Of a stretch of DNA of 32,000 nt, positions 4,806 to 25,733 are shown piece after piece (within the stretch, counting starts at the first letter, position 1; every line of letters starts with the position of its first letter). Made by a program: the position numbers and the translations under genes. Source of the stretch: Flexivirga oryzae (GTDB lineage Bacteria; Actinomycetota; Actinomycetes; Actinomycetales; Dermatophilaceae); NCBI RefSeq assembly GCF_014190805.1, contig NZ_JACHVQ010000001.1, positions 1,926,689 to 1,958,688 of the forward strand, written 5' to 3'. The notes under the pieces were generated by a model, which was given only the letters and a program-made list of their open reading frames with translations, searched no databases and was not told the DNA's origin.

Positions 4806-5437
4806 TTCGGCAGTTCCCCGGCCCCGCCCAGCGCCTGGGCACGCACGGTGAGCATCCGCTGCAGCACGGTCACGAAACTGGCGACCGCGAGCAGACCGAG
4901 CACCACCCCGAGCACCGCCGTCGGCAGGTGCAGCCACGGGATGCCGACCAGGCCGGTGAAGACCAGCACGGCGACCAGCCGCTCGGACCGCTCGGCGATG
5001 CCGACGTTGGCCGTCATACCCAGGCCCTCGGCGCGTGCCTTCGAATAGGACACGACCATCCCGAGGATCAGGCAGGCCAGTGCCAGCCCGGCCATGACGA
5101 GGTTGTCGCCGTCGCCGGCGTACCAGAGCACCAGCGCGCCGAAGATCGCCGCGTCGGCGACCCGGTCGAGGGTGGAGTCGAGGTAGGCGCCCCACACGCT
5201 GGAGCGGCCCGACATGCGCGCCATGTTGCCGTCGAGCGTGTCGGAGAAGATGAACACCGTGATGACGACGGTGCCCCAGAAGAACTCACCGCGCGGGTAG
5301 AACGCGAGCGCGCCGACGCAGACGCCGAGCGTGCCGACGATCGTGACGATGTCGGGCGAGATGCCCAGCCGCAACAGAAGTTTGGCCAGTGGCGCGAAGA
5401 ATTTGGTGATCGCCGCCCGGGCGTAACGGTTGAGCAT
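4802..5437 (-). CDS. pgsA1: CDP-alcohol phosphatidyltransferase, phosphatidylinositol-phosphate synthase
   Basis: CDP-alcohol phosphotransferase motif DTLDGNMARMSGRSSVWGAYLDSTLDRVAD, multiple TM segments, 211 aa, conserved synteny. Confidence 0.9.
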   Translation of the reverse strand: MLNRYARAAITKFFAPLAKLLLRLGISPDIVTIVGTLGVCVGALAFYPRGEFFWGTVVITVFIFSDTLDGNMARMSGRSSVWGAYLDSTLDRVADAAIFGALVLWYAGDGDNLVMAGLALACLILGMVVSYSKARAEGLGMTANVGIAERSERLVAVLVFTGLVGIPWLHLPTAVLGVVLGLLAVASFVTVLQRMLTVRAQALGGAGELPK

Positions 5438-5467
5438 GGTGCTGCCAAGGTTACCGGTGAGTCGTGT

Positions 5468-6052
5468 TCAGTCCTGCGGCCAGGCTTCGGCGAGCCGCGC
5501 TCTGGTGTCCTCCAGCAGCACCGGGAGCGCCTTGGTCTGGCCGACGATGGGCAGGAAGTTGGAGTCGCCCGCCCAGCGCGGCACGACGTGCTGGTGCAGG
5601 TGTGCGGCGACGCCGGCCCCGGCGACCTCCCCCTGGTTCATGCCGAGGTTGAAGCCGTGTGGCGCGGACGCCGCCTTGAGCGCCCGGATCGTCTGCTTGG
5701 TGAGTGCGGTGAACTCGGCCGTCTCCTCCTCGGTCAGGTCCAGGTAGGCCGGGATGTGCCGGTTGGGGCAGATCAGCAGGTGCCCGGGGTTGTACGGAAA
5801 GAGGTTGAGTATGACGAAACAGGTGCTCCCGCGGTGCACGATGAGCGCTTCCTCGTCGGTCTTGCCCTGCGCCGCGCAGAACGGGCACGCGCCGTTGTCG
5901 TCGTGCTCGGGCTTGTCGGCCTCGATGTAGGCCATCCGGTGCGGCGTCCACAGCCGCTCGAAACCGTCGGGCACCCGGGCGAAGTCGCTCTCCGGCTCGA
6001 CCCCACCCTCCGGGGTCCTTCGCGCGGCCCCGGGGTCCATCTGCTGCGGCAT
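5468..6052 (-). CDS. HIT-family nucleotide phosphorylase/hydrolase (Rv2613c-like Ap4A phosphorylase type)
   Basis: LNLFPYNPGHLLICP and histidine triad HLHQHVVPRW. Collinear with my recollection of Rv2613c (RLWTP.RM.Y ... PHGFN.G.N). First gene of the PIM operon. Start ATG 6052 (MPQQMD) or 6040. Confidence 0.85.
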   Translation of the reverse strand: MPQQMDPGAARRTPEGGVEPESDFARVPDGFERLWTPHRMAYIEADKPEHDDNGACPFCAAQGKTDEEALIVHRGSTCFVILNLFPYNPGHLLICPNRHIPAYLDLTEEETAEFTALTKQTIRALKAASAPHGFNLGMNQGEVAGAGVAAHLHQHVVPRWAGDSNFLPIVGQTKALPVLLEDTRARLAEAWPQD

Positions 6053-6141
6053 ACCGGCGATCGTATGCCGAACCGGCGCGGAACAAGCGCAGCCCACCCC
6101 TGGTTGTGCTGACCGAAGGATCGACACAGCAAGGAGAAACG

Positions 6142-6576
6142 ATGCCGCTGCAGGGTGAATACGCCGAGGAGAAGACCGGCTGGGTGAAGGACCAACTCGC
6201 CACCATCGACGAGACCGGCACAACCGAGTCGGTGGGCATCAAGGGTATGGCGGTGGTCGTCTTCACCATGCGGGGCGCCAAGTCCGGCAAACTGCGTCGG
6301 GTGCCGCTGATGCGGGTCGAGCACGACGGCGTCTACGCCGCGGTCGCATCCAAGGGCGGTGCGCCCGAACATCCCGCGTGGTACCACAACATCAAGACCA
6401 ACCCTCAAGTTGAGGTTCAGGACGGTACGTCCACCCACGACGGTGTCGCGCGCCAGATCAGCGGCGCCGAGCGCGAGGAGTGGTGGGAGCGCGCCGTGGC
6501 CGCGTACCCGCCGTACGCCGAGTACCAGACCAAGACCGACCGGCTCATCCCGGTCTTCCTGATCGAGCCTGCCTAG
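6142..6576 (+). CDS. Deazaflavin (F420)-dependent nitroreductase-family oxidoreductase (DDN-like)
   Basis: Family hallmarks SGKLRRVPLM, GGAPEHPAWYHNIKTNPQVEV, EREEWWERAVAAYPPYAEYQ.KTDR.IPVF. ATG 6142 lies 6 nt after AAGGAG. Confidence 0.85.
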   Translation: MPLQGEYAEEKTGWVKDQLATIDETGTTESVGIKGMAVVVFTMRGAKSGKLRRVPLMRVEHDGVYAAVASKGGAPEHPAWYHNIKTNPQVEVQDGTSTHDGVARQISGAEREEWWERAVAAYPPYAEYQTKTDRLIPVFLIEPA

Positions 6577-7061
6577 GACGTCGGCAGCCGGTCGGTCAGC
6601 ACCAGCTGCATCAGCGTGTCCTGCGGGCTGCCGAAGCCGGCCCGCCGGTAGAACGACCGCGCCTGGTCGGTCGCGTTGAGTTGCAGGCGGTAGAGCCCGC
6701 GCCCTTTGGCCCAGTCGACGACCTCGCGCATCAGCCGCTCACCGAGGCCGTGACCGCGCAGTTCGGGCACCACGTAGAAGCCGCTGATGTGCATCCACCC
6801 GCCGGTGGGCCGGCGCAGGCTCGGCAGGCTGGTCGCCAGGATGCCGAGCACGAAGCCGACCGGGTCGCCGGTGGAGCGGCGGGCGATCCAGGCCGGCCGG
6901 GCCTCACCTTGCTCGATCCACGCCGAGGCGAACTCGTCGAGGAAGCCTTTGCGGTTCGGCGCGCCGCCCTCCAGGTCCCAGCGCAGCGTCATACCGGCCA
7001 GCACCAGGGCGTCCTGCGCGGTGGCCCGCTCGATGCGGACGTCGTCCAGCTCGTCGCTCAC
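6573..7061 (-). CDS. GNAT-family N-acetyltransferase
   Basis: 162 aa. Acetyl-CoA-binding motif VVPELRGHGLGERLM and C-terminal ARSFYRRAGF. GTG start at 7059-7061. Confidence 0.85.
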   Translation of the reverse strand: MSDELDDVRIERATAQDALVLAGMTLRWDLEGGAPNRKGFLDEFASAWIEQGEARPAWIARRSTGDPVGFVLGILATSLPSLRRPTGGWMHISGFYVVPELRGHGLGERLMREVVDWAKGRGLYRLQLNATDQARSFYRRAGFGSPQDTLMQLVLTDRLPTS

Positions 7062-7172
7062 GTGTCGCAGTTTTCCATGCGGACGGGCACTCCGTGCACG
7101 ATCCGTCGTTCCGGCGCAGCCTTTCAGCCGCGCCGAGACGCGACGACGTGGGCTCGCGGTTCCCGCAGCACC

Positions 7173-7216
7173 GATACGGATGGATACGTTTGCGCTAAAC
7201 CGTATCCATCCGTATC
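7173..7216 (-). terminator. Long perfect hairpin at the 3' end of the ligJ-like operon
   Basis: gatacggatggatacg (7173-7188) and cgtatccatccgtatc (7201-7216) form a perfect 16-bp inverted repeat, extendable by TTT/AAA with one bulge. One arm encodes the last 6 codons of the hydratase (LIRMDT). Confidence 0.6.
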
Positions 7217-8202
7217 AGCCGCGGGTAGACGCGCGTCGCGTTCTCGGAGAACACCTGCTGCCGGACGGCGTCGGTGACGGGTGCCGCGTCGACGTACCGC
7301 TTGGTGTCGTCGAAGTAGTGACCTGTGCTCGGGTCGATCCCGCGTACCGCACCGATCATCTCCGAGCCGAACAGGATGTTGGCCGGGTCGAGCACGGTGA
7401 ACATCAGGTCGATCCCGGGCTGGTGATAGACGCACGTGTCGAAGAAGACGTTGCGCATCAGGTGCTCCTCCAGTGCCGGCTTGCCGAGCATGTCGGCCAG
7501 CCCGCGGTAGCGACCCCAGTGGAACGGTACGGCGCCGCCGCCGTGCGGGATGATCAGCCGCAGCGACGGGAAGTCGGCGAACAGGTCGCCCTGCAGCAGT
7601 TGCATGAAGACCGTCGTGTCGGCGGCCAGGTAGTAGCCACCGGTGGCGTGGAAGGCCGGGTTGCAGCTGGCCGAGACGTGCACCATCGCGGGCACGTCCA
7701 GCTCACACAGCCGCTCGAACAACGGATACCAGTAGCGATCGGTGAGCGGTGGCGCGGTGAACCTCCCGCCGCTGGGATCGGGGTTGAGGTTGCAGCCGAT
7801 GAAACCCTGCGCGACGCACCGGTCCAACTCGGCGATGGCCGCGTCGAGCGGTTGGCCGGGGCTCTGCGGCAGCTGACACGCTGCCGCGAAACTGCCCGGG
7901 AACAACCCGGCGACCCGAGCGATCAGGTCGTTGCATGCCCTGGCCCAGGCGATGTTCGCCGGGAGGTCGCCCTGGTGGTGCGCCATCGCGGACGCGCGCG
8001 GGGAGAAGATGGTCAGATCCGCACCCCGTTCCTGTGCCAGCCGCAGCTGGTTGTCCTCGACGGAGGCACGGATCTGGTCGTCACTGATGACCGGGTATGG
8101 CGGTGCGCTCGCGCCGGCCTGCAGGGCGCTGAGTTGGTCCAGACGCCACTGAGTGTGCGCGGCGGGGACGGTGGTGTAGTGGCCGTGGCAGTCGATGATC
8201 AT
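7195..8202 (-). CDS. ligJ: 4-oxalomesaconate hydratase-like amidohydrolase_2 protein (LigJ-like)
   Basis: MIIDCHGHYT start, GFIGCNLNPDP, PPLTDRYWYPLFERLCELDVPAMVHV, IIPHGGGAVP, FDTCVY, LFGSE. These are collinear with the LigJ sequence as I recall it. ATG 8200-8202 overlaps the upstream stop (ATGA). Confidence 0.8.
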   Translation of the reverse strand: MIIDCHGHYTTVPAAHTQWRLDQLSALQAGASAPPYPVISDDQIRASVEDNQLRLAQERGADLTIFSPRASAMAHHQGDLPANIAWARACNDLIARVAGLFPGSFAAACQLPQSPGQPLDAAIAELDRCVAQGFIGCNLNPDPSGGRFTAPPLTDRYWYPLFERLCELDVPAMVHVSASCNPAFHATGGYYLAADTTVFMQLLQGDLFADFPSLRLIIPHGGGAVPFHWGRYRGLADMLGKPALEEHLMRNVFFDTCVYHQPGIDLMFTVLDPANILFGSEMIGAVRGIDPSTGHYFDDTKRYVDAAPVTDAVRQQVFSENATRVYPRLIRMDTV

Positions 8203-9095
8203 CAGGCGATCTCCCGGTCGGCGGGTGCGAGCTGGAACGCGTCGATCAGGGCGACCAGGTCCGGTTCGCCCGGCAGCAGGTTCCCGTGCGCGGCGGCCCA
8301 TCGCTGCCGGTGCACCGTGGCGCCCGCCATCCACGGCTCGACGCCCACGTCCCGGACCGTCGTCGCGGCCTCCTCCATCTCCTCGGCCCGCCGGACCCCG
8401 TGCTGGACCGAGCGGGCGACGAAGTAGGCGGCGATCTGCTCCCAGTCGGCGTCCGGGAGGATGTTGGACAACGAGGCCAGGACGTCACGTTCGACGCCGT
8501 ACTGCCGGGCCGCCAGCAACGACTCGGTGAACAACGCCTCCAACCCCTTGACGACCACCGAGCGGCACAGCTTGGTGGCCGCCGCCCGACCGACTCGGTC
8601 GGACACCACGCGCACCCGGGAGAAACCCCAGCGGTCCGCGTCGGCCGCAAACTCCGCCGCGTGCGGGCCGCCCAGCAGGAACGACGACGCGATCCGGTGC
8701 GGCTCGATCGGTGACATCAGTCCGGCCTCGACATACCGGCCGCCCGCCCGATCGATCGACTCCGCAGACTGCTGCTTGTGCCCCGGCGAGGACGAGTTGA
8801 CGTCGACGAACCAGGCCCCGGGCGCGATGCCGACGGACGCCGCCCGAGCCGCCTCGACCGAGCGGGCCGCCGTGACGGCACAGATCACCAGGTCCGCACC
8901 GGCCACGGCCGCCGGGGCCGAGGACGCCGGCGGCAGGCCGAGGTCGCGCGCGTTTCGGGACGCGGTGCTCATCTCGTCGGCGAACGCCACGTCCCACGCA
9001 GCGCAGTCGACGTCGCCGGTGCCGCGCAGGTCCTCGACCATCACCCGGCCGACCTCGCCCAGACCGATCACGGCGACCCGCTGCGCATGCCCCAC
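8202..9095 (-). CDS. NAD(P)-dependent oxidoreductase, 6PGDH-type NAD-binding domain plus DUF1932-like C-terminus
   Basis: Rossmann motif VAVIGLGEVGRVM at the N-terminus. C-terminal helical domain (KLCRSVVVKGLEALFTESLLAARQYGV...) resembles DUF1932-containing dehydrogenases. GTG 9093-9095 lies 5 nt after GAGGAG. The upstream 249 aa of ORF 8202..9842 is antisense to gntR and rejected. Confidence 0.8.
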   Translation of the reverse strand: MGHAQRVAVIGLGEVGRVMVEDLRGTGDVDCAAWDVAFADEMSTASRNARDLGLPPASSAPAAVAGADLVICAVTAARSVEAARAASVGIAPGAWFVDVNSSSPGHKQQSAESIDRAGGRYVEAGLMSPIEPHRIASSFLLGGPHAAEFAADADRWGFSRVRVVSDRVGRAAATKLCRSVVVKGLEALFTESLLAARQYGVERDVLASLSNILPDADWEQIAAYFVARSVQHGVRRAEEMEEAATTVRDVGVEPWMAGATVHRQRWAAAHGNLLPGEPDLVALIDAFQLAPADREIA

Positions 9096-9122
9096 GACAA
9101 CTCCTCGCAAACTGGAAACACG

Positions 9123-9150
9123 ATTGTTGATAATACTAGCCGATAATTCT
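9123..9150 (+). promoter_or_regulatory. AT-rich operator-like motif in the divergent ligJ-operon/gntR promoter region (site 1)
   Basis: ATTGTTGATAATACTAGCCGATAATTCT. 22/28 positions match the reverse complement of 19279-19306. Imperfect dyad ATTGTT-N13-GATAAT. Overlaps -10-like hexamers on both strands (GATAAT, TATTAT). Confidence 0.45.
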
Positions 9151-9215
9151 GTTCGTCTAGACTGTGCCGACGATCGCACGAGAGTCGGACGCCGGCTCGG
9201 AGAGGGGACCCACCC

Positions 9216-9902
9216 ATGGCCGCTGCCACCAGGAAGCTTCGTTCCGGCCAGGAGGCCAAGCAGCTCGTGGTCCAGGGACTGCGGGACGCCATACTCGCCG
9301 GCGACATGGCCCCCGGCCAACGTCTGGTGGAGTCCGAGCTGATGGAGACGTTCGGGGCGACCCGCGGCAGCGTGCGCTCCGCGATCGACGACCTGGCCGC
9401 CGAAGGCCTGGTCGAGCGGATACCCAACCGCGGCGCGCGCGTCCGCCGGGTGTCCCTCGAGGAGGCGATCGCCATCCTGGAATGCCGCGCCGTCCTGGAG
9501 GGGCTGCTCGCCTCCCGCGCCGCGACCCGGGCCACCGACGCCCAGATCGCCCAGTTGGTGGAGCTGGGCGAGCGGATGACCGAGGCGGTGCGCGGCGGCG
9601 ATGTCGGCAGCTACTCGCGACTGAACTCCCAATTGCACGAGACCGTTTCCGAACTCGGCGAGCAACAGGTCGCCACCGGGCTGATCGGGCGGTTGCGCGC
9701 ACAGATCGTGCGCCACCAGTTCCGGCTGTCGATGCGACCAGGCCGCCCGCAGGTGTCCATCAAGGAGCACCTGGCGATCATCCGCGCCATCGAGAAGCGT
9801 GACCCGGAGGCCGCGGACCGCGCCGCCCGGGCCCATGTGCACAGCGTGATCGACGCCCTCGTGGAGATCGACCGCGAGGCGTCCTCCAACGTCTCCGCCT
9901 AG
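9216..9902 (+). CDS. GntR-family transcriptional regulator (FadR/FCD subfamily)
   Basis: N-terminal wHTH (GQRLVESELMETFGATRGSVRSAIDDLAAEGLVERIPNRGARV) and helical FCD-type C-terminal domain. ATG is preceded by GGAGAGGGG. Confidence 0.9.
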   Translation: MAAATRKLRSGQEAKQLVVQGLRDAILAGDMAPGQRLVESELMETFGATRGSVRSAIDDLAAEGLVERIPNRGARVRRVSLEEAIAILECRAVLEGLLASRAATRATDAQIAQLVELGERMTEAVRGGDVGSYSRLNSQLHETVSELGEQQVATGLIGRLRAQIVRHQFRLSMRPGRPQVSIKEHLAIIRAIEKRDPEAADRAARAHVHSVIDALVEIDREASSNVSA

Positions 9903-9903
9903 T

Positions 9904-9934
9904 AAGTGTCACACCGAGGTGCGGTGTCACACTT
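9904..9934. promoter_or_regulatory. Inverted repeat / hairpin between gntR stop and vapB start
   Basis: aagtgtcacaccg-aggtg-cggtgtcacactt gives a 13-bp stem with one central mismatch. It contains two copies of the near-palindrome GTGTCACAC. Starts 2 nt after the gntR stop and ends 6 nt before the antitoxin ATG. Confidence 0.5.
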
Positions 9935-9940
9935 GCTGGT

Positions 9941-10210
9941 ATGCCGACCACGAAGCCCCGCCACGCGGTGACCGAGACGCCCGAGGTCTCCGCGGCGCTG
10001 CACGCCGCCGCCCGGAGGTGGCCGCAGGATCGTGACAAGCCAGCTCGACTCTTGCGGCACCTGATCGACGAAGGCTTCAAGAGCATCGAGCCTGAAGCCG
10101 CCGATCGTGGGAACGACCGCCTCGCCGCCCTACATCGCATCAGCGGCTCCTACACCGGCCTGTACGAACCTGGGTACCTCGAAGACCTGCGGGCGGAGTG
10201 GCCTTCGTGA
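9941..10210 (+). CDS. vapB: Putative VapB-type antitoxin (TA pair 1)
   Basis: 89-aa ORF immediately upstream of, and overlapping, a PIN-domain gene. No family motif recognised beyond size and position. Confidence 0.6.
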   Translation: MPTTKPRHAVTETPEVSAALHAAARRWPQDRDKPARLLRHLIDEGFKSIEPEAADRGNDRLAALHRISGSYTGLYEPGYLEDLRAEWPS

Positions 10211-19156: not shown

Positions 19157-19169
19157 GGCCGCCTCCAGG

Positions 19170-19205
19170 CACGTATCAGAACATCGAATGATGTCATGTT
19201 ACGTG
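19170..19205. promoter_or_regulatory. Imperfect inverted repeat upstream of vapB (pair 5), candidate autoregulatory operator
   Basis: CACGTA-tcag-AACAT ... ATGTT-ACGTG (19170-19184 / 19196-19205), 14-49 nt upstream of the vapB ATG. Confidence 0.4.
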
Positions 19206-19278
19206 CAATTGGCGTCGGGTCAGGGATCGCCGATCGGCAACGTGGTCGAGCCAGTTCCGGATGGCGATCTCGCCTCCA

Positions 19279-19306
19279 AGAATTGTCGTCTTATATTATT
19301 GACAAT
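19279..19306 (-). promoter_or_regulatory. AT-rich operator-like dyad upstream of the ligK-like operon (site 2)
   Basis: Minus-strand reading ATTGTCAATAATATAAGACGACAATTCT. Perfect dyad AATTGTC-N13-GACAATT (19281-19287 / 19301-19307). 22/28 identical to site 1 at 9123-9150. The right arm overlaps the TTGACA -35 box. Confidence 0.45.
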
Positions 19307-19328
19307 TTTGTGACCATGTTTCTACGCT
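19299..19328 (+). promoter_or_regulatory. Predicted promoter of the ligK-like operon, probably giving a leaderless mRNA
   Basis: TTGACA (19299-19304), 18-nt spacer, TACGCT (19323-19328, fits TANNNT), then 6 nt to the ATG at 19335. No Shine-Dalgarno sequence. Confidence 0.45.
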
Positions 19329-19334
19329 CGACTC

Positions 19335-20027
19335 ATGAGCCGCACAATCGTCGTCACCGACCAGCCCCGTAGCGACCCGGAGGCCGCGGCCCGACTCGGA
19401 GCGTTCGGGACCGCCACCGTGCACGAGGCGATCGGCCGCTCCGGTTACCTCGGACCGACGCTGCGTCCGGCCTGGCCGGGTGCGCGGATCGGCGGGAACG
19501 TGGTCACCGCGCTGTGCTGGCCCGGAGACAACCTGATGATCCATGTGGCCGTGGAGCAGTGCCGTAAGGGCGACGTCCTCGTCGTCGCCACCAACTCCCC
19601 CAGCACCGACGGACTGTTCGGCGAGCTTTTCGCGACCGCCCTGCGGCACCGCGGCGTCCGCGGCGTCGTGCTCGGCTGCGGCGTGCGCGATGTCGCCGAA
19701 CTGCAGGCCATGGGCTTCCCGGTCTGGTCGGCCGCGGTCAGTGCACAGGGCACCGTCAAGGAGACTGCCGGCAGCGTGAACCTGCCGGTCGTGCTGGGCG
19801 GCCAGCTCATCCGCCCCGGTGACGTCGTGGTCGCCGACGACGACGGCGTGGTCTGCGTGCCACACGACCGGGTGGACAACGCCCTGGCCGCGTCGCAGGC
19901 CCGCGAGGACAAGGAGGCCGCTTCCCGAGCCGCCTTCCAGGACGGGCAGCTCGGACTGGACCGCTACGGACTGCGCGACCGGCTCGGCGAATTCGGCATC
20001 GAGTACGTCCGCTACCAGGACCTGTGA
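19335..20027 (+). CDS. ligK: 4-carboxy-4-hydroxy-2-oxoadipate / HMG aldolase-oxaloacetate decarboxylase (RraA fold, LigK/GalC-like)
   Basis: RraA-like core (GTATVHEA, GDNLMIHVA, KGDVLVV, GELFATALRHRGVRGVVLGCGVRD, FPVWS, PGDVVVADDDGVVCVP) plus the ~65-aa C-terminal extension typical of LigK-type aldolases. 230 aa. Confidence 0.8.
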   Translation: MSRTIVVTDQPRSDPEAAARLGAFGTATVHEAIGRSGYLGPTLRPAWPGARIGGNVVTALCWPGDNLMIHVAVEQCRKGDVLVVATNSPSTDGLFGELFATALRHRGVRGVVLGCGVRDVAELQAMGFPVWSAAVSAQGTVKETAGSVNLPVVLGGQLIRPGDVVVADDDGVVCVPHDRVDNALAASQAREDKEAASRAAFQDGQLGLDRYGLRDRLGEFGIEYVRYQDL

Positions 20028-21157
20028 TGCCCTCGGCCGAGGTCGACGGCGTGCGCTGCATGTGGATGCGGGGCGGCACCTCCAAGGGTGCCTTCTTCCT
20101 GGCCGAGGACCTGCCCGCCGACCCCACCGAGCGCGACCGGTTGCTGCTACGCATCATGGGCACGCCCGATCCGCAACAGATCGATGGCATCGGCGGAGCC
20201 ACCTCGGTCACCAGCAAGGTCGCCGTCGTCAGCGCCTCGACCGATCCGGACGCCGACGTCGACTACCTCTTCCTGCAGGTCGGTGTCGACCGGCCGACCG
20301 TCTCCGACCGGCAGAACTGCGGCAACATCCTGGCCGGCGTCGGACCGTTCGCGGTGGAACGCGGCCTGCTCGCCACAGCAGGCGACCGGACCACGGTGCG
20401 TATCCGGATGGTCAACTCCGACAGCATCGCGGTCGCGACCTTCCCCACCCCGAATGGACGACCGCAGTATGCCGGCGACGCCCGGATCTCCGGCGTGCCG
20501 GGATCGGCCGCGCCGATCAGCATCGCGTTCCGCGGCACCGAGGGCTCGGTCACCGGCGCGCTCTTCCCGACCGGCCGGGTCGTCGACGAGATCGACGGCG
20601 TCGCGGTCACGTGCATCGACAACGGGATGCCGGTCGTGGTGCTGACCGCCGCCGCGCTGGGGCGGACCGGCACGGAGACCCACGAGCAGTTGCAGGCGGA
20701 CACCGCCCTGCTGGAGCGGGTGGACCGGATCCGCTGCGCCGCAGGAGAGCTGATGGGTCTCGGCGACGTTGCCGCCTCGTCGGTCCCCAAGACGATGGCT
20801 GTCTCCCCCGCCGTCGACGGCGGTCACCTGCGCATCCAGTCCTTCATCCCCGTCACGCCGCATCAGGCGATCGGCGTCCTGGCCGCGATCAGTGCGGTGA
20901 CCGCCTGCCGCCACCCGGACAGCACCACGCACGACGTGGCGCGGTCCTGGCCGGTCGACAGCAGCACGATCGACGTCGAACACCCCAGTGGGCACATGCT
21001 TCTCGACGTCACGGCGGGCATGCAGGAGGGCATCTTCACCGTGCAGCGGTCCGCCGTGATCCGCACCGCGCGCAAGCTCTTCGACGGCACCGTCTTCCCG
21101 ACCTCCACCCAATCCCTACCCGTACCCGAGGAGACCACCCATGCCGCTGCGCCATGA
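20024..21157 (+). CDS. PrpF-family isomerase (4-oxalomesaconate tautomerase GalD / LigU-like)
   Basis: MWMRGGTSKGAFF, IMGTPDPQQIDGIGGATSVTSKVAVV, DVDYLFLQV, NCGNILAGVGPFA. Start is GTG 20024 or ATG 20027 (TGATG junction with ligK). Confidence 0.8.
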   Translation: MMPSAEVDGVRCMWMRGGTSKGAFFLAEDLPADPTERDRLLLRIMGTPDPQQIDGIGGATSVTSKVAVVSASTDPDADVDYLFLQVGVDRPTVSDRQNCGNILAGVGPFAVERGLLATAGDRTTVRIRMVNSDSIAVATFPTPNGRPQYAGDARISGVPGSAAPISIAFRGTEGSVTGALFPTGRVVDEIDGVAVTCIDNGMPVVVLTAAALGRTGTETHEQLQADTALLERVDRIRCAAGELMGLGDVAASSVPKTMAVSPAVDGGHLRIQSFIPVTPHQAIGVLAAISAVTACRHPDSTTHDVARSWPVDSSTIDVEHPSGHMLLDVTAGMQEGIFTVQRSAVIRTARKLFDGTVFPTSTQSLPVPEETTHAAAP

Positions 21158-22094
21158 AGTCGCGCACCTGTCCCATCTGCACCTGAACACACCCGTCCTC
21201 GACGAGAGCGTGGCGTTCTTCGTCGACTACCTCGGCCTGACCCCCAACGGTGAGGAGCCGGACGGCAGCGTCCACCTGCACGCGTTCGACGACTACGAAC
21301 ACCACACCATCACCCTGTCGGGACACCAGACCTCCGGGATCCGGCGCACCTACCTGCGGGCCAGCAGCCCGGAGGCACTGCAGCGGCGAGTCACGGCGCT
21401 CGAGGCAGCCGGCCAGGGCATCGGCTGGGCGGACGGACCCACCGGGTACGGGCCCACCTACCTCTTCCACGACCCCGACGGCCACGAGCTCGGGATCTAC
21501 TGGGAGACCGAGAGATTCACGCCGTCCGCGGACCAGGCGCCCGCTCTGAAGAACCAGGCAGCGGCGTACCCCGGCCGCGGGGTCTGCGTGCGCCGCCTGG
21601 ACCACATCAACTACCTCGGCGTCGACGTCGAGGCCAACCGCGACTTCTTCCGCGACCAGCTCGGTGCCCTGGTGACCGAGCAGATCGTCCTCGACACCGG
21701 CGATGTCGCGGGAAGCTGGACGACCTTCACCAACAAGGGGTATGACGCGGTCTACACCCGCGACAACACCGGCACGAGCGGCCGCCTGCACCACATCGCG
21801 TTCGCCGTCGACAGTCGTGCGGACATCCTGCGTGCCGCCGACATCGCGCTCGAACAAGGCGTGTTCATCGAGACCGGCCCGCACAAGCACGCGATCCAGC
21901 AGACCTTCTTCCTCTACGTGTACGAGCCCGGCGGCAACCGGATCGAGCTGTGCAACGCCGGCGCGCGGCTCGTCCTCGACCCCGACTGGCAGCCGATCAA
22001 CTGGACCGAGGCCGAGCGGGCCAAGGGCCAGGCATGGGGCCTGAAGACCATCGCCAGCTTCCACTCGCACGGCACGCCGCCGGTCGAGTCGTAG
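21141..22094 (+). CDS. Type I (vicinal oxygen chelate) two-domain extradiol ring-cleavage dioxygenase, catechol 2,3-dioxygenase-like
   Basis: 317 aa. XylE-like metal ligand contexts LDHINYLG, RLHHIAFAV, FFLYVYEPGGNRIEL, and tail WGLKTIASFHSHGTPP. ATG lies 7 nt after GAGGAG and overlaps the upstream gene by 17 nt. Confidence 0.85.
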   Translation: MPLRHEVAHLSHLHLNTPVLDESVAFFVDYLGLTPNGEEPDGSVHLHAFDDYEHHTITLSGHQTSGIRRTYLRASSPEALQRRVTALEAAGQGIGWADGPTGYGPTYLFHDPDGHELGIYWETERFTPSADQAPALKNQAAAYPGRGVCVRRLDHINYLGVDVEANRDFFRDQLGALVTEQIVLDTGDVAGSWTTFTNKGYDAVYTRDNTGTSGRLHHIAFAVDSRADILRAADIALEQGVFIETGPHKHAIQQTFFLYVYEPGGNRIELCNAGARLVLDPDWQPINWTEAERAKGQAWGLKTIASFHSHGTPPVES

Positions 22095-22176: not shown

Positions 22177-23859
22177 TCAGCTCTGCGCGACGTCCACCGG
22201 CTCGGGGTCGGTCGACACGAAGCGCTCCTCGTGCTCGCGGCCACCGATCAGGACGGCGGCCAGCACCGCGGCGAGCAGCGCGGCAATGCCACAGATCAGG
22301 TAGCCGAGTGCGTATCCGTTCGAAAGGGCATGGAACGCAACGTCTTTCAGTGGGTTGAGCGGTGCGGGCACGCCGTTGGCTCCGAGTGGACCCGAGTTGA
22401 CGGCGCCGACCGCGCCTTCGAGCTCTGCCTTCTTCGCACCCGTCGCGTGCGACGGCGCAGCGTTGAACGCCTTGAGGGCGTCCTGCAGCTGCGGCGAGGC
22501 GGCCACCTTGGCGGCGATCTCGTAGGCCGACTTGGTCAGCGCGACCGCACCGACGATCGCCGGGCCGAGACTCAGGCCGAAATCTCGCAGCATCGACGTC
22601 ATCGCGCTCGCCATACCGGCCCTGGACGTCGGGACACTGTTCACCGACACCGCGGTGATCGAGGTGACGGCGGTCTTGAAACCGGCGCCGACTGCGAGCA
22701 ACGGCACCGCGATCGCCCACAACGAGTCGTGCGTCGACGGGATCAGGCACAACGCGACGTCACCGACGCCGATCAGGGCGGCACCGAGCGCGAGCACCCA
22801 GCCCGGGTTGTACCGCTGCAGCAGGAACGGGCTGACCGGAAACAGCACGGCACCCATGATGTTCAGCAGGATGAACGCGACGGCCGTGAACAGCGGCGAA
22901 TGGCCCTGGATCGCCGACACCCGGATGCTGGTCGCGTACGCCGTGCCGAGGTAGGCGAACATCGCCAGGAGCGTGACGATCGAGGTGACCACGAACGCGC
23001 GGTTCGAGAAGAGCTCGAGTTGCACCAACGGCTTCTCGGTCCGGCGCTCGACGAACACGAAGGCGACCAGGAAGATCACCGCTGCGATGAAGCAGCCGAT
23101 GACGGTTCCCGAGGTCCAGTCTCCTTCGGCACCCTGGATCACGCCGTACACCAACGCGAACACGCCGATCGCCACCAGGATCTGACCGGGTATGTCGAGC
23201 GCGCGGCCCTCCTTCGCGCTCGAGTTCGTCGCACCGACAACGGTGATCACGGTGCTGATCAGCGCGAAGCAGGCCAGCCCGGCGAACGCCCAGCGCCAGC
23301 TGGCGTCCGCGCCGCCCGAGTGGTGGATGCGAGCCAGCAGGCCACCCATCACCGGGGAGCCGAAACCACCGACCGTCAACGCGACGGCCCACGCGGAGAA
23401 GACCTCCGACCGCGCCTTCACCGTGTGCGTGCCGGCGGCCAGCATGGCGATCGAGGTCGGGAACATCGCGGCCGCACCGACACCGGCCAAACCGTAACCA
23501 CCGAAGAGGTAGACGAACTTCATGCCGTGCGATCCACCGGTCGGCGTGAGGAACGCGATCACGGTGCCGATCACCATCAGCGACGAGCCCACGGTCAGCA
23601 ACCGTTTGCGGCCGAACATGTCGCCGAGCACGCCGAAGGTCAGCTCCAGCAAGGTCACCGGCAACAAGAAGGCGTCGGACACCCAGGTCAGCTGCGTCGA
23701 GGAGGGGTTCAGGTCCAGCTGGATGATGCCTTGCAGCACCGCGGGCATCGACAGCCCGAGCTGGGCGACCAACGCCGCGAACACGCACGCGACGAAGGTC
23801 CCCTTCGTCAGTTTTCGCCCGGCAGCCGACTCGGCGGGCACTTCCGTCATCGAACTCAT
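22177..23859 (-). CDS. MFS transporter, DHA2 (14-TMS, EmrB/QacA-like) family
   Basis: 560 aa, highly hydrophobic with many predicted TM segments. MFS motif A region GVLGDMFGRKRLLTVG. The length and large C-terminal half fit DHA2. Start is ATG 23859 or 23850. Confidence 0.9.
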   Translation of the reverse strand: MSSMTEVPAESAAGRKLTKGTFVACVFAALVAQLGLSMPAVLQGIIQLDLNPSSTQLTWVSDAFLLPVTLLELTFGVLGDMFGRKRLLTVGSSLMVIGTVIAFLTPTGGSHGMKFVYLFGGYGLAGVGAAAMFPTSIAMLAAGTHTVKARSEVFSAWAVALTVGGFGSPVMGGLLARIHHSGGADASWRWAFAGLACFALISTVITVVGATNSSAKEGRALDIPGQILVAIGVFALVYGVIQGAEGDWTSGTVIGCFIAAVIFLVAFVFVERRTEKPLVQLELFSNRAFVVTSIVTLLAMFAYLGTAYATSIRVSAIQGHSPLFTAVAFILLNIMGAVLFPVSPFLLQRYNPGWVLALGAALIGVGDVALCLIPSTHDSLWAIAVPLLAVGAGFKTAVTSITAVSVNSVPTSRAGMASAMTSMLRDFGLSLGPAIVGAVALTKSAYEIAAKVAASPQLQDALKAFNAAPSHATGAKKAELEGAVGAVNSGPLGANGVPAPLNPLKDVAFHALSNGYALGYLICGIAALLAAVLAAVLIGGREHEERFVSTDPEPVDVAQS

Positions 23860-23902
23860 GACGTGAAGTCAATCACAATATCGGCGTAATTGCCTACCTA
23901 TT

Positions 23903-23926
23903 TTGTTAATAATCTTGCCGACCGTG
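23903..23926 (+). promoter_or_regulatory. Partial (half-site) copy of the AT-rich motif upstream of the MFS gene (site 3)
   Basis: TTGTTAATAATCTTGCCGACCGTG. The first 11 nt match site 1 at 10/11 and GCCGA follows at 1-nt shorter spacing. The right half-site is absent. Confidence 0.3.
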
Positions 23927-23961: not shown

Positions 23962-24873
23962 TCAGCGACACGGGCCGATCGGCTCGGCGACCAAGGTCTC
24001 GCTCGGCAGATCCACACGCAGCACCATGTCCCCGGGGTGCAGCCGGGCGTCGCGTCGGTAGAGCTCGAGCAGCCGTTCCTCTGCAGCCAGGTCGCCCGTG
24101 TCCGCGGCTTCGAGCAATTGCGCCACCTCGTCGATGAGGGTCGCGTCCTGACCCTCATCGCCCGGCGCGGTCATCGTCCCCCATCGGTCCCAGAGCAGCA
24201 GTTCGTCACCGAAGCGGTGCGCCACCTCCAGCAGCACGTAGTTGCGGACCATCCACGCACCGCGAGCCACCGGCACCGACGCGTCGACGCCGAACGTCTC
24301 GGCGTCGAGGGTGCCTGCGCGATGGCCGCGCCATACCTCGGCCGCGGTGTGGAATCCGTTGCCGGCCGGGATGTTCCGCGGGTTCGGCAGCGCCGCGCTC
24401 GGTTCGTCCACCTCCGGGTCGAAGCGGACCCACCGGTCCCCCAGCCACACCTCGGGGATGACGTGGTCGTGGTGCCAGTCGGGCGCGAAGTAGTCGACGA
24501 ACCCGACCCGGGACCTCGCGGGTATGCCGTGCTGGCGCAGTGTCGCGACGCTCAGCAGTGTGTGGTCACGGCAGCATCCCTGCACCTTCGTGGCGGGCTC
24601 CCGCCTTTCAGTGAGCGGCGCCGGGTGGCGTTGCTGGTCGATCCCGAGCGTGCGCTCGATCCAGCGGGAGTGGATGTCCGAGACGGTCTTCGCGGGCAAG
24701 TCGTGATCGGATGCCCGGTAGTGCACGATGACGTTCCGGACGACGGCCGACATCTCGTCGAGGTCGGTGGGGACTGCGTCCAGCAGGGCTGCGAAGCGCC
24801 CCGGGTCGCTGTATGCCGTGTGGGCGGCGTGGTCGATCACCGAAAATGGCATGGCGGTACTCATGATTGGCAT
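23962..24873 (-). CDS. Transglutaminase-like cysteine peptidase-fold protein
   Basis: Cys-His-Asp core in the expected order: GCCRDHTLLSVATLRQHGIPARSRVGF, HHDHVIPEVWLGDRWVRFDPE. ATG 24873 gives 303 aa (alternative 24864). The upstream 200 aa of ORF 23962..25476 overlaps merR and is rejected. Confidence 0.8.
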   Translation of the reverse strand: MPIMSTAMPFSVIDHAAHTAYSDPGRFAALLDAVPTDLDEMSAVVRNVIVHYRASDHDLPAKTVSDIHSRWIERTLGIDQQRHPAPLTERREPATKVQGCCRDHTLLSVATLRQHGIPARSRVGFVDYFAPDWHHDHVIPEVWLGDRWVRFDPEVDEPSAALPNPRNIPAGNGFHTAAEVWRGHRAGTLDAETFGVDASVPVARGAWMVRNYVLLEVAHRFGDELLLWDRWGTMTAPGDEGQDATLIDEVAQLLEAADTGDLAAEERLLELYRRDARLHPGDMVLRVDLPSETLVAEPIGPCR

Positions 24874-24905
24874 CCGTTCTGTTATCGGGCTTCTCGGGTA
24901 TTGGG

Positions 24906-25733
24906 TCAGTGTTCTTGAGCCGGCGCCAGCGGCTGCACGATGTCGGCGACGTGTTCGACGCCCGCGCTGCCGTCCCAGTCGGAGATGTAGCGCTCCCGGA
25001 CCGGGCCGGCCGACGGAAGATCGAGAGATGCACGCACGACCGCCGAATACGCCTGCAGGATCTGGGGATAGCCGCACAGGTCGGAGCCGATCTCGACATA
25101 CAGCTCCTCGCCTGCCGGCTCCACCCGCACGCTGATGTCGCTCGTCGGCGGCACCAGTCCGTCGAAGGGCACGCAGACCTCGATCGGGCCGTCGCTGTCC
25201 GGGCTGACGGTGCCGTGGTAGATCACCCAGGACTCCGCCGTCCGCGTCGCGTCGTGCGCTGCGAGGTGCTCGGAGATCGCCCGATCCGCCTCGGTGAAGC
25301 AGTCGACCAGCTCCGGTTGCAGCGCCCGTCGGGTGATCGAAGCAACCGTCCGCTCCGCCATGGTGCGTTGCCGCACGACAAGGTCCGCCGCGGCGACCTG
25401 CCGCGCGGTGAGCTCGGCGAGCAGGAAGTCGACGATGCCCTCCTGTTCCCGGTGCAGTCGCGCGTGGCCCTGCCACCAGGCGGTCAACCGGTCTGCCGCC
25501 TGGTGCTCGTCATCGGCGTCGACCACCTGCGCGACGAGGGCGAGCGGTGCGCCCGCCCGCCGCAGCATGGTGATCCGCTCGGCACGACCCAGTTGTTCTG
25601 GCCCGTAGTAGCGGTAGCCGTTGTGTTCATCGATCCGCTGTGGCAGCAGCAGGCCGGAATCGGCATACAACCGCAGTGCTTTGGGACTCAGCCCGGTGCT
25701 GCGGCCGAACTCGCCGGCGGTCATCTCCTTCAT
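24906..25733 (-). CDS. MerR-family transcriptional regulator with GyrI-like/effector-binding C-terminal domain
   Basis: N-terminal MerR wHTH (MTAGEFGRSTGLSPKALRLYADSGLLLPQRIDEHNGYRYYGPEQLGRAERITMLRRAG). The ~170-aa C-terminal domain is of BmrR/GyrI-like type. Confidence 0.9.
   Translation of the reverse strand: MKEMTAGEFGRSTGLSPKALRLYADSGLLLPQRIDEHNGYRYYGPEQLGRAERITMLRRAGAPLALVAQVVDADDEHQAADRLTAWWQGHARLHREQEGIVDFLLAELTARQVAAADLVVRQRTMAERTVASITRRALQPELVDCFTEADRAISEHLAAHDATRTAESWVIYHGTVSPDSDGPIEVCVPFDGLVPPTSDISVRVEPAGEELYVEIGSDLCGYPQILQAYSAVVRASLDLPSAGPVRERYISDWDGSAGVEHVADIVQPLAPAQEH

Follow-up and report, generated by a model that had tools for sequence, protein, structure and literature searches.

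The window analysed here, a 32 kb stretch of the Flexivirga oryzae genome with 68% G+C, carries genes of an aromatic-acid catabolic cluster around gntR, which encodes a regulator of the GntR/FCD class. A dehydrogenase gene and an Amidohydro_2 gene run divergently from gntR and are translationally coupled through a stop/start overlap. Further downstream lie ligK, prpF/galD and a two-domain VOC dioxygenase gene (19335-22094), whose overlapping stops and starts make them one operon, followed by the gene of an MFS transporter. Three short palindromic elements (named site 1, site 2, and site 3) are located upstream of these transcription units, in the gntR-dehydrogenase intergenic region, ahead of ligK and ahead of the transporter gene, respectively. 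Judged from the sequence evidence described below, the three sites are predicted operators of the adjacent GntR/FCD regulator, with a palindrome of the GT-Nx-AC type, and we give this assignment a probability of roughly 0.8.

The similarity between the first two sites is extensive. Positions 9123-9150 (ATTGTTGATAATACTAGCCGATAATTCT) align without gaps to ATTGTCAATAATATAAGACGACAATTCT, the reverse complement of 19279-19306, with 22 of 28 identical positions, exactly as counted in the initial annotation of this DNA. The dyad AATTGTC-N13-GACAATT that had been described for site 2 is also present, with arms at 19281-19287 and 19301-19307, and overlaps the TTGACA (19299-19304) of the ligK promoter. 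Within the two 28-mers, the inverted repeat ATTGT-NN-ACAAT lies at the left end of site 1 (first 12 nucleotides, nt) and at the right end of site 2 (last 12 nt on the plus strand). A half-site had been noted upstream of the MFS gene; the site exists, but it is a full pseudo-palindrome (23902-23913) that is conserved in two other actinobacterial loci (named L002 and L085, see below). Each of the three window sites has one outer box (AACA, TGTG, and TGCC).

The raw identity of 22/28 is not unusual by itself. Owing to its GC bias, the window contains 114 inverted 28-mer pairs with 22 or more matches, as GC-rich coding DNA matches itself easily. Raw match counting was therefore replaced by a composition-weighted score, in which every matched base counts -log2 of the base frequency, combined with block shuffles. 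By this score, the site 1/site 2 pair is the top 28-mer pair of the window (52.7 bits; runner-up 47.3 bits), and third place goes to site 2 against site 3, the direct pair 19282/23889. The best pair in each of 32 shuffles with the composition kept in 40-bp blocks scored 41.9-47.5 bits, and 52.7 bits was never reached. Furthermore, the 12-mer pattern ATTGTNNACAAT with at most one mismatch has two matches in the window against 0.08 expected, a number reached in 0 of 100 shuffles. With at most two mismatches, only positions 9123, 19295, and 23902 match, a count that is not significant alone (three against 1.98 expected). A symmetrised matrix, trained solely on gntR-upstream sites of other genomes, finds exactly three matches in the 32 kb, which are the three sites (scores in Table 1), and the next best match anywhere has 2.6 bits; 2000 block-shuffled windows gave on average 0.003 matches at 19 bits or more. 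An origin from a miniature inverted-repeat transposable element or another repeat element was rejected, because the element has just three copies and all of them lie at orthologous promoter positions. A riboswitch or small RNA explanation was dropped after an Rfam scan of the whole window returned no RNA family.

Conservation of the motif was investigated in 80 loci (numbered with the prefix L) collected with a profile of 23 GntR orthologues, in which GntR is 57-78% identical to the query. Most of these loci belong to Streptomyces; the others come from Amycolatopsis and other Pseudonocardiaceae, Micromonospora, Planosporangium, Streptosporangiaceae, Actinomadura, Modestobacter, Tersicoccus, and an Intrasporangiaceae metagenome-assembled genome. 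A 12-mer, ATTGTTGACAAT or ATTGTCAACAAT, recurs in the upstream regions and corresponds to the inverted repeat ATTGT-NN-ACAAT. Of the 80 loci, 78 have at least one such palindrome (at most one mismatch) at a distance of 45-110 bp upstream of the gntR start, among them loci in which gntR has other gene surroundings (L025, L063, L088). In the 1.546 Mb of loci, the palindrome has 141 matches with at most one mismatch, 57 of them exact, against 0-9 in 20 block shuffles. A second copy, ATTGTTGACAAA, is present in around 50 Streptomyces loci, where it lies just past the dioxygenase gene and ahead of an MFS transporter gene. Matrix matches of at least 16 bits in the 80 loci comprise 80 upstream of gntR, 27 past the dioxygenase gene, three directly behind gntR (ahead of ligK, an O-demethylase operon or the dioxygenase gene) and 13 elsewhere; several of the last group have common flanks, and the one examined (L009) adjoins a BD-FAE esterase gene. 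The genes preceded by further sites elsewhere are ligK (L002/L085), an operon of LigM-like O-demethylase, MTHFR and PurU (L004, L089), a VOC dioxygenase gene (L020), MFS transporter genes (Streptomyces, L088, L002) and the BD-FAE esterase gene (L009).

All three window sites have counterparts in this set. The core of site 1 is kept in L082 (ATTGTTGATAAT) and L002 (ATTGTTCATAAT), the 12-mer of site 2 is found in identical form at the equivalent position in L002/L085, and the site orthologous to site 3, TTTGTTGATAAT, lies upstream of an 86%-identical MFS gene in L002/L085. Both halves of the palindrome are equally conserved, and either orientation occurs (centre TG or CA), as expected of the target of a dimeric factor and not of a sigma -35 box. 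A site upstream of the regulator's own gene is kept across the orthologues and is accompanied by sites at neighbouring target genes, the pattern of an autoregulated local pair. Since the motif follows gntR into other gene contexts and has the GT-N2-AC geometry, the 12-bp palindrome is very probably the DNA-binding site of the neighbouring GntR regulator. Conservation upstream of orthologous genes had been named beforehand as a check, and it is borne out in several actinobacterial groups; the proposed regulon of the adjacent regulator, linking the dehydrogenase/gntR region, the ligK operon and the MFS gene, is strongly supported by this comparative evidence.

Table 1 Features of the gntR-ligK region in the window.
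Feature	Coordinates	Strand	Remarks
Site 1 core palindrome, ATTGTTGATAAT	9123..9134		Between divergent dehydrogenase operon and gntR; one mismatch to ATTGT-NN-ACAAT; 20.9 bits
Site 2 core palindrome, ATTATTGACAAT	19295..19306		One mismatch; contains TTGACA; 26.1 bits
Site 3 core pseudo-palindrome, TTTGTTAATAAT	23902..23913		43 nt upstream of MFS start; two mismatches; 19.2 bits
Site 1 outer box AACA (RACA-nn-palindrome)	9117..9120		Outside earlier 28-mer; invariant in three-genome alignment
Site 2 outer box TGTG (palindrome-nn-TGTY)	19309..19312		Outside earlier 28-mer; TTGT kept in L002
Site 3 flanks	23888..23919		AATTGCC 23888-23894 and outer box TGCC 23916-23919; layout of site 2, direct orientation
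Distal part of earlier site 1 28-mer	9135..9150		Contains GATAAT 9142-9147; 0.8 bits as palindrome site
Distal arm AATTGTC of site 2	19281..19287		Resembles Streptomyces element; not kept in L002
Dehydrogenase-operon promoter-like site	9130..9159	-	-35 TAGACG 9159-9154, 18-nt spacer, -10 TATTAT 9135-9130 overlapping palindrome; consensus scan only
TAGACT, putative -10-like hexamer for gntR	9158..9163	+	TAGACT in L002, TACACT in L082, TAGATT in Streptomyces consensus
TACGCT, putative -10-like hexamer (TANNNT)	19323..19328	+	18 nt after TTGACA
gntR, GntR/FCD regulator	9216..9902	+	228 aa; 100% identical to Flexivirga oryzae protein
Dehydrogenase, NAD_binding_2 and DUF1932	8202..9095	-	First gene of divergent operon
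Amidohydro_2 protein (LigJ-like, candidate 4-oxalomesaconate hydratase)	7195..8202	-	Start ATG overlaps dehydrogenase stop by 1 nt
ligK, 4-carboxy-4-hydroxy-2-oxoadipate aldolase (LigK/GalC)	19335..20027	+	NCBIfam NF006731, 313.6 bits (cut-off 179)
prpF/galD, 4-oxalomesaconate tautomerase (GalD/LigU)	20024..21157	+	NCBIfam NF033377, 489.3 bits (cut-off 440)
Two-domain VOC extradiol dioxygenase	21141..22094	+	Pfam
MFS transporter (DHA2-like)	22177..23859	-	Third regulated unit
Accessory block, ~9.3 kb	9903..~19250 (right edge approximate)		Between gntR and ligK; outside regulon

The comparison also redefines the anatomy of the element. Family-wide conservation runs outward from the palindrome as RACA-nn-ATTGT-nn-ACAAT-nn-TGTY, with outer boxes in many genomes. 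The outer box in 60 pooled flanks of non-Streptomyces sites has T in 37, G in 42, T in 38, and C/T in 49 cases at its four positions, and the Streptomyces consensus is ACAAAATTGTTGACAATCTTGT. The functional core is therefore better placed, as far as sequence conservation can tell, in the 12-bp palindrome at one end of the 28-mer than in the N13 dyad, and the 28-nt unit proposed in the initial annotation gives way to this palindrome, often with its RACA/TGTY boxes. We consider it unlikely that a 28-bp operator, or the AATTGTC-N13-GACAATT dyad as two distant half-sites bound for example by a tetramer, is the functional unit. The distal 16 nt of the two 28-mers, ACTAGCCGATAATTCT and ATAAGACGACAATTCT, share 12 of 16 positions by eye, a likeness that is probably not accidental, and elements resembling AATTGTC are seen again, 13-14 nt ahead of the palindrome, at site 3 (AATTGCC) and at Streptomyces transporter-promoter sites (gAATTGTcg); the tetramer of the related repressor Atu1419 can hold two palindromes (PMC7797058). 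Nevertheless, L002, the closest genome with a contiguous cluster, does not conserve the distal arm of site 2, although both its palindrome and the TTGT that follows are retained. As a palindrome site, the distal part of site 1 scores almost nothing (Table 1), the family-wide conservation lies on the opposite sides of the palindrome, and the 12-mer alone defines the gene-upstream sites in the 78 loci. The distal elements may possibly be auxiliary half-sites rather than operator, lineage-specific in the case of site 2. The TAG..GATAAT of site 1 is kept in three genomes (the window, L082 and L002), and the distal part of site 1 may instead be spacer of the gntR promoter.

The features of the regulator protein are compatible with the 12-bp palindrome as its operator. 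The winged helix-turn-helix (wHTH) domain of GntR type (PF00392; 60.1 bits, cut-off 27) covers residues 18-76, and the FCD domain (PF07729; 93.8 bits, cut-off 24.3) covers residues 87-209. GntR operators have the signature (N)yGT(N)xAC(N)y as an inverted repeat (PMC7797058), and ATTGT-NN-ACAAT conforms to it in the 78 loci and at the three window sites. The DNA-contacting Glu34, Arg45, and Arg49 of Atu1419 (helices alpha2/alpha3) align by HMMER to E39, R50, and R54, which are invariant in the 23 orthologues, whereas Thr46 and Gly66 are not conserved (G51 and N71 in the window GntR). H141, H185, and H207 of the FCD domain are invariant in the orthologues and align with histidines of Atu1419 at the sequence level; they are candidate ligands of a three-His metal site. 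The closest solved structure by sequence is 3IHU (E = 1.9e-24, residues 14-217), which has been placed in the VanR group of FCD regulators (PMC7797058), a group whose effector domain consists of six helices and lacks the additional helix of the FadR group; it is a structural-genomics FCD regulator from Cupriavidus/Ralstonia JMP134 without assigned function, operator or effector. In Micromonospora and Planosporangium, a second, paralogous gntR (L026 14357-14965 and L047 13391-13927; 51-55% identity) lies directly upstream of ligK-prpF(-VOC) and has its own similar site, AAATGTTGACAATCCTGTCG, giving two related regulators per cluster.

Several known systems resemble this regulator-operator pair. 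Atu1419 of Agrobacterium fabrum (PDB 6Z74) is a VanR-group FCD/GntR repressor of aromatic catabolism, including a tetrahydrofolate (THF)-dependent O-demethylase; as a tetramer able to hold two palindromes, it binds ATGTATACAT (ATGT-AT-ACAT) palindromes that overlap the -10/-35 boxes of divergent and neighbouring promoters, and its effector is methylene-THF (PMC7797058). Like the window GntR, it combines a wHTH domain with an FCD domain bearing three conserved histidines, and short GT-N2-AC palindromes in several copies; in contrast, the two proteins are distant (E = 2e-11) and the half-sites differ (ATGT versus ATTGT). VanR and VanR2 of Acinetobacter, Caulobacter, and Pseudomonas sp. NGC7 are GntR repressors acting at inverted repeats near the promoter and released by an aromatic acid, with syringate and 3-O-methylgallate as the inducers of VanR2 (PMC12314914). 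Compared by description rather than by sequence, they are likewise local GntR repressors of methoxy-aromatic or gallate-related catabolic operons, but they are proteobacterial and serve operons of the Rieske VanAB-type demethylase, and galBCD is there under the LysR protein GalR. In Proteobacteria, the LysR proteins GalR and LigR control the genes for gallate/protocatechuate 4,5-cleavage (PMC12314914). Those Pseudomonas and Sphingobium systems share the lower pathway (4-oxalomesaconate tautomerase, hydratase, and 4-carboxy-4-hydroxy-2-oxoadipate aldolase), a dedicated transporter and one local regulator, but the regulator is a LysR activator with a T-N11-A box, unlike the GntR/FCD protein with its GT-N2-AC palindrome. 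The window departs from the LysR-type arrangement in that its LysR gene lies 8 kb off behind unrelated genes and the regulator adjacent to the cluster is of the GntR/FCD type.

The positions of the sites relative to promoter elements suggest how the regulator would act. Site 1 adjoins the presumed -35 region of gntR. At site 2, TTGACA lies 30 nt before the ligK ATG (19335), and the L002 counterpart of this promoter reads TTGACA-18-TACTCT; as the ATG is close to TACGCT, the ligK mRNA may be leaderless or near-leaderless. A sigma-70 scan called one weak minus-strand match at site 1, only a weak minus-strand match at site 2, where the plus-strand ligK promoter fell below the thresholds, and none at site 3. 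In the proposed mechanism, a wHTH dimer of GntR would bind the 12-bp inverted repeat, with site 1 controlling the divergent dehydrogenase/amidohydrolase operon as well as, by autoregulation, gntR, site 2 controlling ligK-prpF-dioxygenase through its overlap with the -35 TTGACA, and site 3 controlling the MFS transporter. Without inducer, the dimer or a higher oligomer would occupy the sites and RNA polymerase would be blocked; since the sites overlap or adjoin promoter elements, occupancy should have this effect at all four transcription units. A carboxylate effector at the FCD metal site would then release the repressor.

It is rather improbable that GntR binds these sites as an activator, or with a dual role at some promoters. 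FadR-type proteins can regulate in both directions, and the centre of site 2, at about -34.5 from the presumed start, is near the class II activator position, but the perfect TTGACA at site 2 needs no activator, and repressors typically have an autoregulatory site such as the one upstream of gntR. The characterised VanR-group relatives Atu1419, VanR, and VanR2 also repress (PMC7797058, PMC12314914). A different binder, such as the LysR protein (5-904), the MerR protein (24906-25733) or VapB, is very improbable. About 11 Streptomyces loci have a homologue of the LysR protein (51-56% identity) no more than 10 kb from gntR, and the control of the proteobacterial cleavage genes by GalR and LigR gives a LysR protein some appeal (PMC12314914), but the motif tracks gntR in essentially every locus, mostly with no LysR or MerR neighbour, and its palindrome is of the GntR GT-N2-AC type and not of the LysR T-N11-A type. 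VapB for its part has its own inverted repeat with 17-nt arms at 19169-19206, the only repeat in an inverted-repeat scan around the sites. The LysR homologues are found in L005 (beside an EamA transporter), L010, L031, L035, L046, L050, L058, L069, L074, and L079, where the proximity may be a functional link or only a conserved neighbourhood. Plain promoter sequence with no dedicated regulator (a -35 TTGACA with an AT-rich UP or -10-like stretch) is the least credible explanation and is largely refuted in silico: TTGACA does lie inside an AT-rich element of a 68% GC genome where raw 22/28 matches are common, but conservation of the non-promoter half, ATTGT, equals that of ACAAT, the site can be flipped with respect to the gene that follows it (L004, L023, L037, L044), only three matches occur in 32 kb despite many other promoters, and the matches in 1.55 Mb concentrate at gntR and pathway genes.

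Several points weigh against the assignment of the three sites to a GntR repressor. The assignment is a prediction from sequence comparison. Site 3 has two mismatches, and matches of that grade are not rare by count; the promoter hexamers are tentative consensus guesses, with no sigma-70-like promoter called at site 3. An operator on a -35 box can also serve a class II activator. Streptomyces dominate the loci, so the counts overstate the independent observations. The argument is also somewhat circular, as the window itself helped to reveal the template palindrome, but the positional result in 78 of 80 loci does not depend on the window. Furthermore, the related Atu1419 answers to methylene-THF and not to a pathway substrate. 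What was observed directly is that the sites exist, where they lie, how specific and conserved they are, and that they occur together with the regulator gene; from this we infer the binding, the sign of regulation and the effector.

The motif-linked genes point to the pathway under control. The Amidohydro_2 protein matches its family with 170 bits and matches no NCBIfam equivalog. The nearest model of the VOC dioxygenase is catechol 2,3-dioxygenase (289 bits, below the cut-off of 320), and among PDB entries the closest is 9wgj, which bears the label 'catechol 1,2-dioxygenase' (E = 1e-100). The cluster dioxygenase is a two-domain VOC, type I enzyme and not a member of the LigB superfamily (type II), and the cluster has no LigB-type dioxygenase, 2-pyrone-4,6-dicarboxylate hydrolase equivalog or LigC-type dehydrogenase. 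The VOC dioxygenase gene is always among the motif-linked genes, sometimes alone with gntR (L020, L076). From the sequence context, the VOC enzyme is a candidate non-homologous gallate dioxygenase. Wherever LigK, PrpF and the hydratase occur in these actinobacterial clusters (L002-L089), the ring-cleavage enzyme alongside them is of this two-domain VOC type. A paper on a Bacillus catechol 2,3-dioxygenase (PMC8671467) was set aside as irrelevant to the question of a VOC-type gallate dioxygenase.

Additional genes near the sites extend the picture. A PF07519 tannase (L085 1114-2943) adjoins the MFS gene in the Intrasporangiaceae-like locus. In Streptomyces rochei (L009), a 589-aa BD-FAE esterase (5398-7167) lies beside an extra high-scoring site, CAAGATTGTTAACAATATG, at about 7238, and sites with the same flanks are present in L014, L015, L018, and L034. 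These neighbours suggest that tannin/ester hydrolysis belongs to the regulon. In Sinomonas and Amycolatopsis (L089 10747-15050; L004 10713-13995), the operator precedes genes for a LigM-like GCV_T O-demethylase, MTHFR and a PurU-like formyl-THF deformylase, a set of one-carbon-handling genes that is also found in the Sphingobium syringate/vanillate pathway.

Taken with the 4-oxalomesaconate tautomerase, the hydratase (Amidohydro_2 or PIG-L/GalB-like) and the 4-carboxy-4-hydroxy-2-oxoadipate aldolase, the motif-linked genes indicate degradation of gallate, or of a closely similar compound that originates from tannins or syringate. That the effector is gallate or a close relative (3-O-methylgallate, syringate or protocatechuate) is an even guess; methylene-THF, as for Atu1419, or a ring-fission product are possible alternatives. 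As a broader and still tentative proposal, an uncharacterised regulon for gallate and methoxy-aromatics of tannin and syringate origin may extend across many lineages of actinobacteria, in which a VanR-like FCD repressor, possibly as a higher oligomer, would act on a four-box array of up to 26 bp, and ring cleavage would be carried out by a type I VOC enzyme non-homologous to the LigB-type GalA/DesB.

The repressor-operator pair is of the ordinary local GntR/FCD kind and apparently has not been described before. In a literature search that left subscription journals largely outside and covered the operator, actinobacterial GntR regulation of gallate, syringate or 4-oxalomesaconate genes, and VOC-type gallate dioxygenases, we found no description of this regulator or its site, and no regulator reported for the cluster. 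The analysis gives a precise operator, ATTGT-NN-ACAAT, and a candidate repressor for the aromatic-acid cluster of Streptomyces, Amycolatopsis, Micromonospora, Micrococcales, and others, and the pair could be used as a biosensor part for gallate/syringate-type products of lignin and tannin. With tannase/esterase, THF-dependent O-demethylase, transporters and VOC dioxygenase as members, the regulon suggests an actinobacterial version of gallate degradation in which the ring is cleaved by a non-orthologous enzyme.

The gene order gntR - (hydratase) - ligK - prpF - VOC dioxygenase is found in about 70 of the 80 loci. L002 and its near-twin L085 have tannase, MFS, Amidohydro_2 and dehydrogenase genes diverging from gntR, ligK, prpF and the dioxygenase gene. 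Since gntR and ligK are only about 100 bp apart there, the Flexivirga operons were separated by an insertion, and the regulatory link has outlived the 9-kb island that splits the cluster. The accessory block has a GC content of 64-67% against 68-72% in the flanks and contains HIT, methyltransferase, MBL and NUDIX genes, two APH-domain open reading frames (ORFs), and at least three toxin-antitoxin modules (PIN/VapB and PIN/FitA-like ribbon-helix-helix). Its first genes are common to L082/L083 (89% GntR identity), where a Mu-type transposase and a lanthipeptide synthetase come next.

The dehydrogenase and Amidohydro_2 genes are also neighbours in L002, L049, L064, L065, L082, and L085. By taxon, the pair occurs in Amycolatopsis, Pseudonocardiaceae and Intrasporangiaceae loci; the Streptomyces clusters lack both genes and have a PIG-L (GalB-like) protein instead. 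Right after the gntR stop, a direct repeat, GTGTCACAC ... GTGTCACAC, at 9905-9935 precedes a small ORF that starts at 9942 (MPTTKPRHAVTETPEV...). This repeat, at the left edge of the island, may be a further operator of the antitoxin type. The inverted repeat at 19169-19206, with arms GCACGTATCAGAACATC and GATGTCATGTTACGTGC that are 82% complementary and enclose a 4-nt loop, lies just upstream of the vapB start (19156) and is probably the VapB(C) autoregulatory operator, distinct from site 2. A transglutaminase-core ORF (PF01841, E = 5e-11) at 23962-24900 on the minus strand, beside the MerR gene, ends 49 nt from site 3 and is probably unrelated to the regulon.

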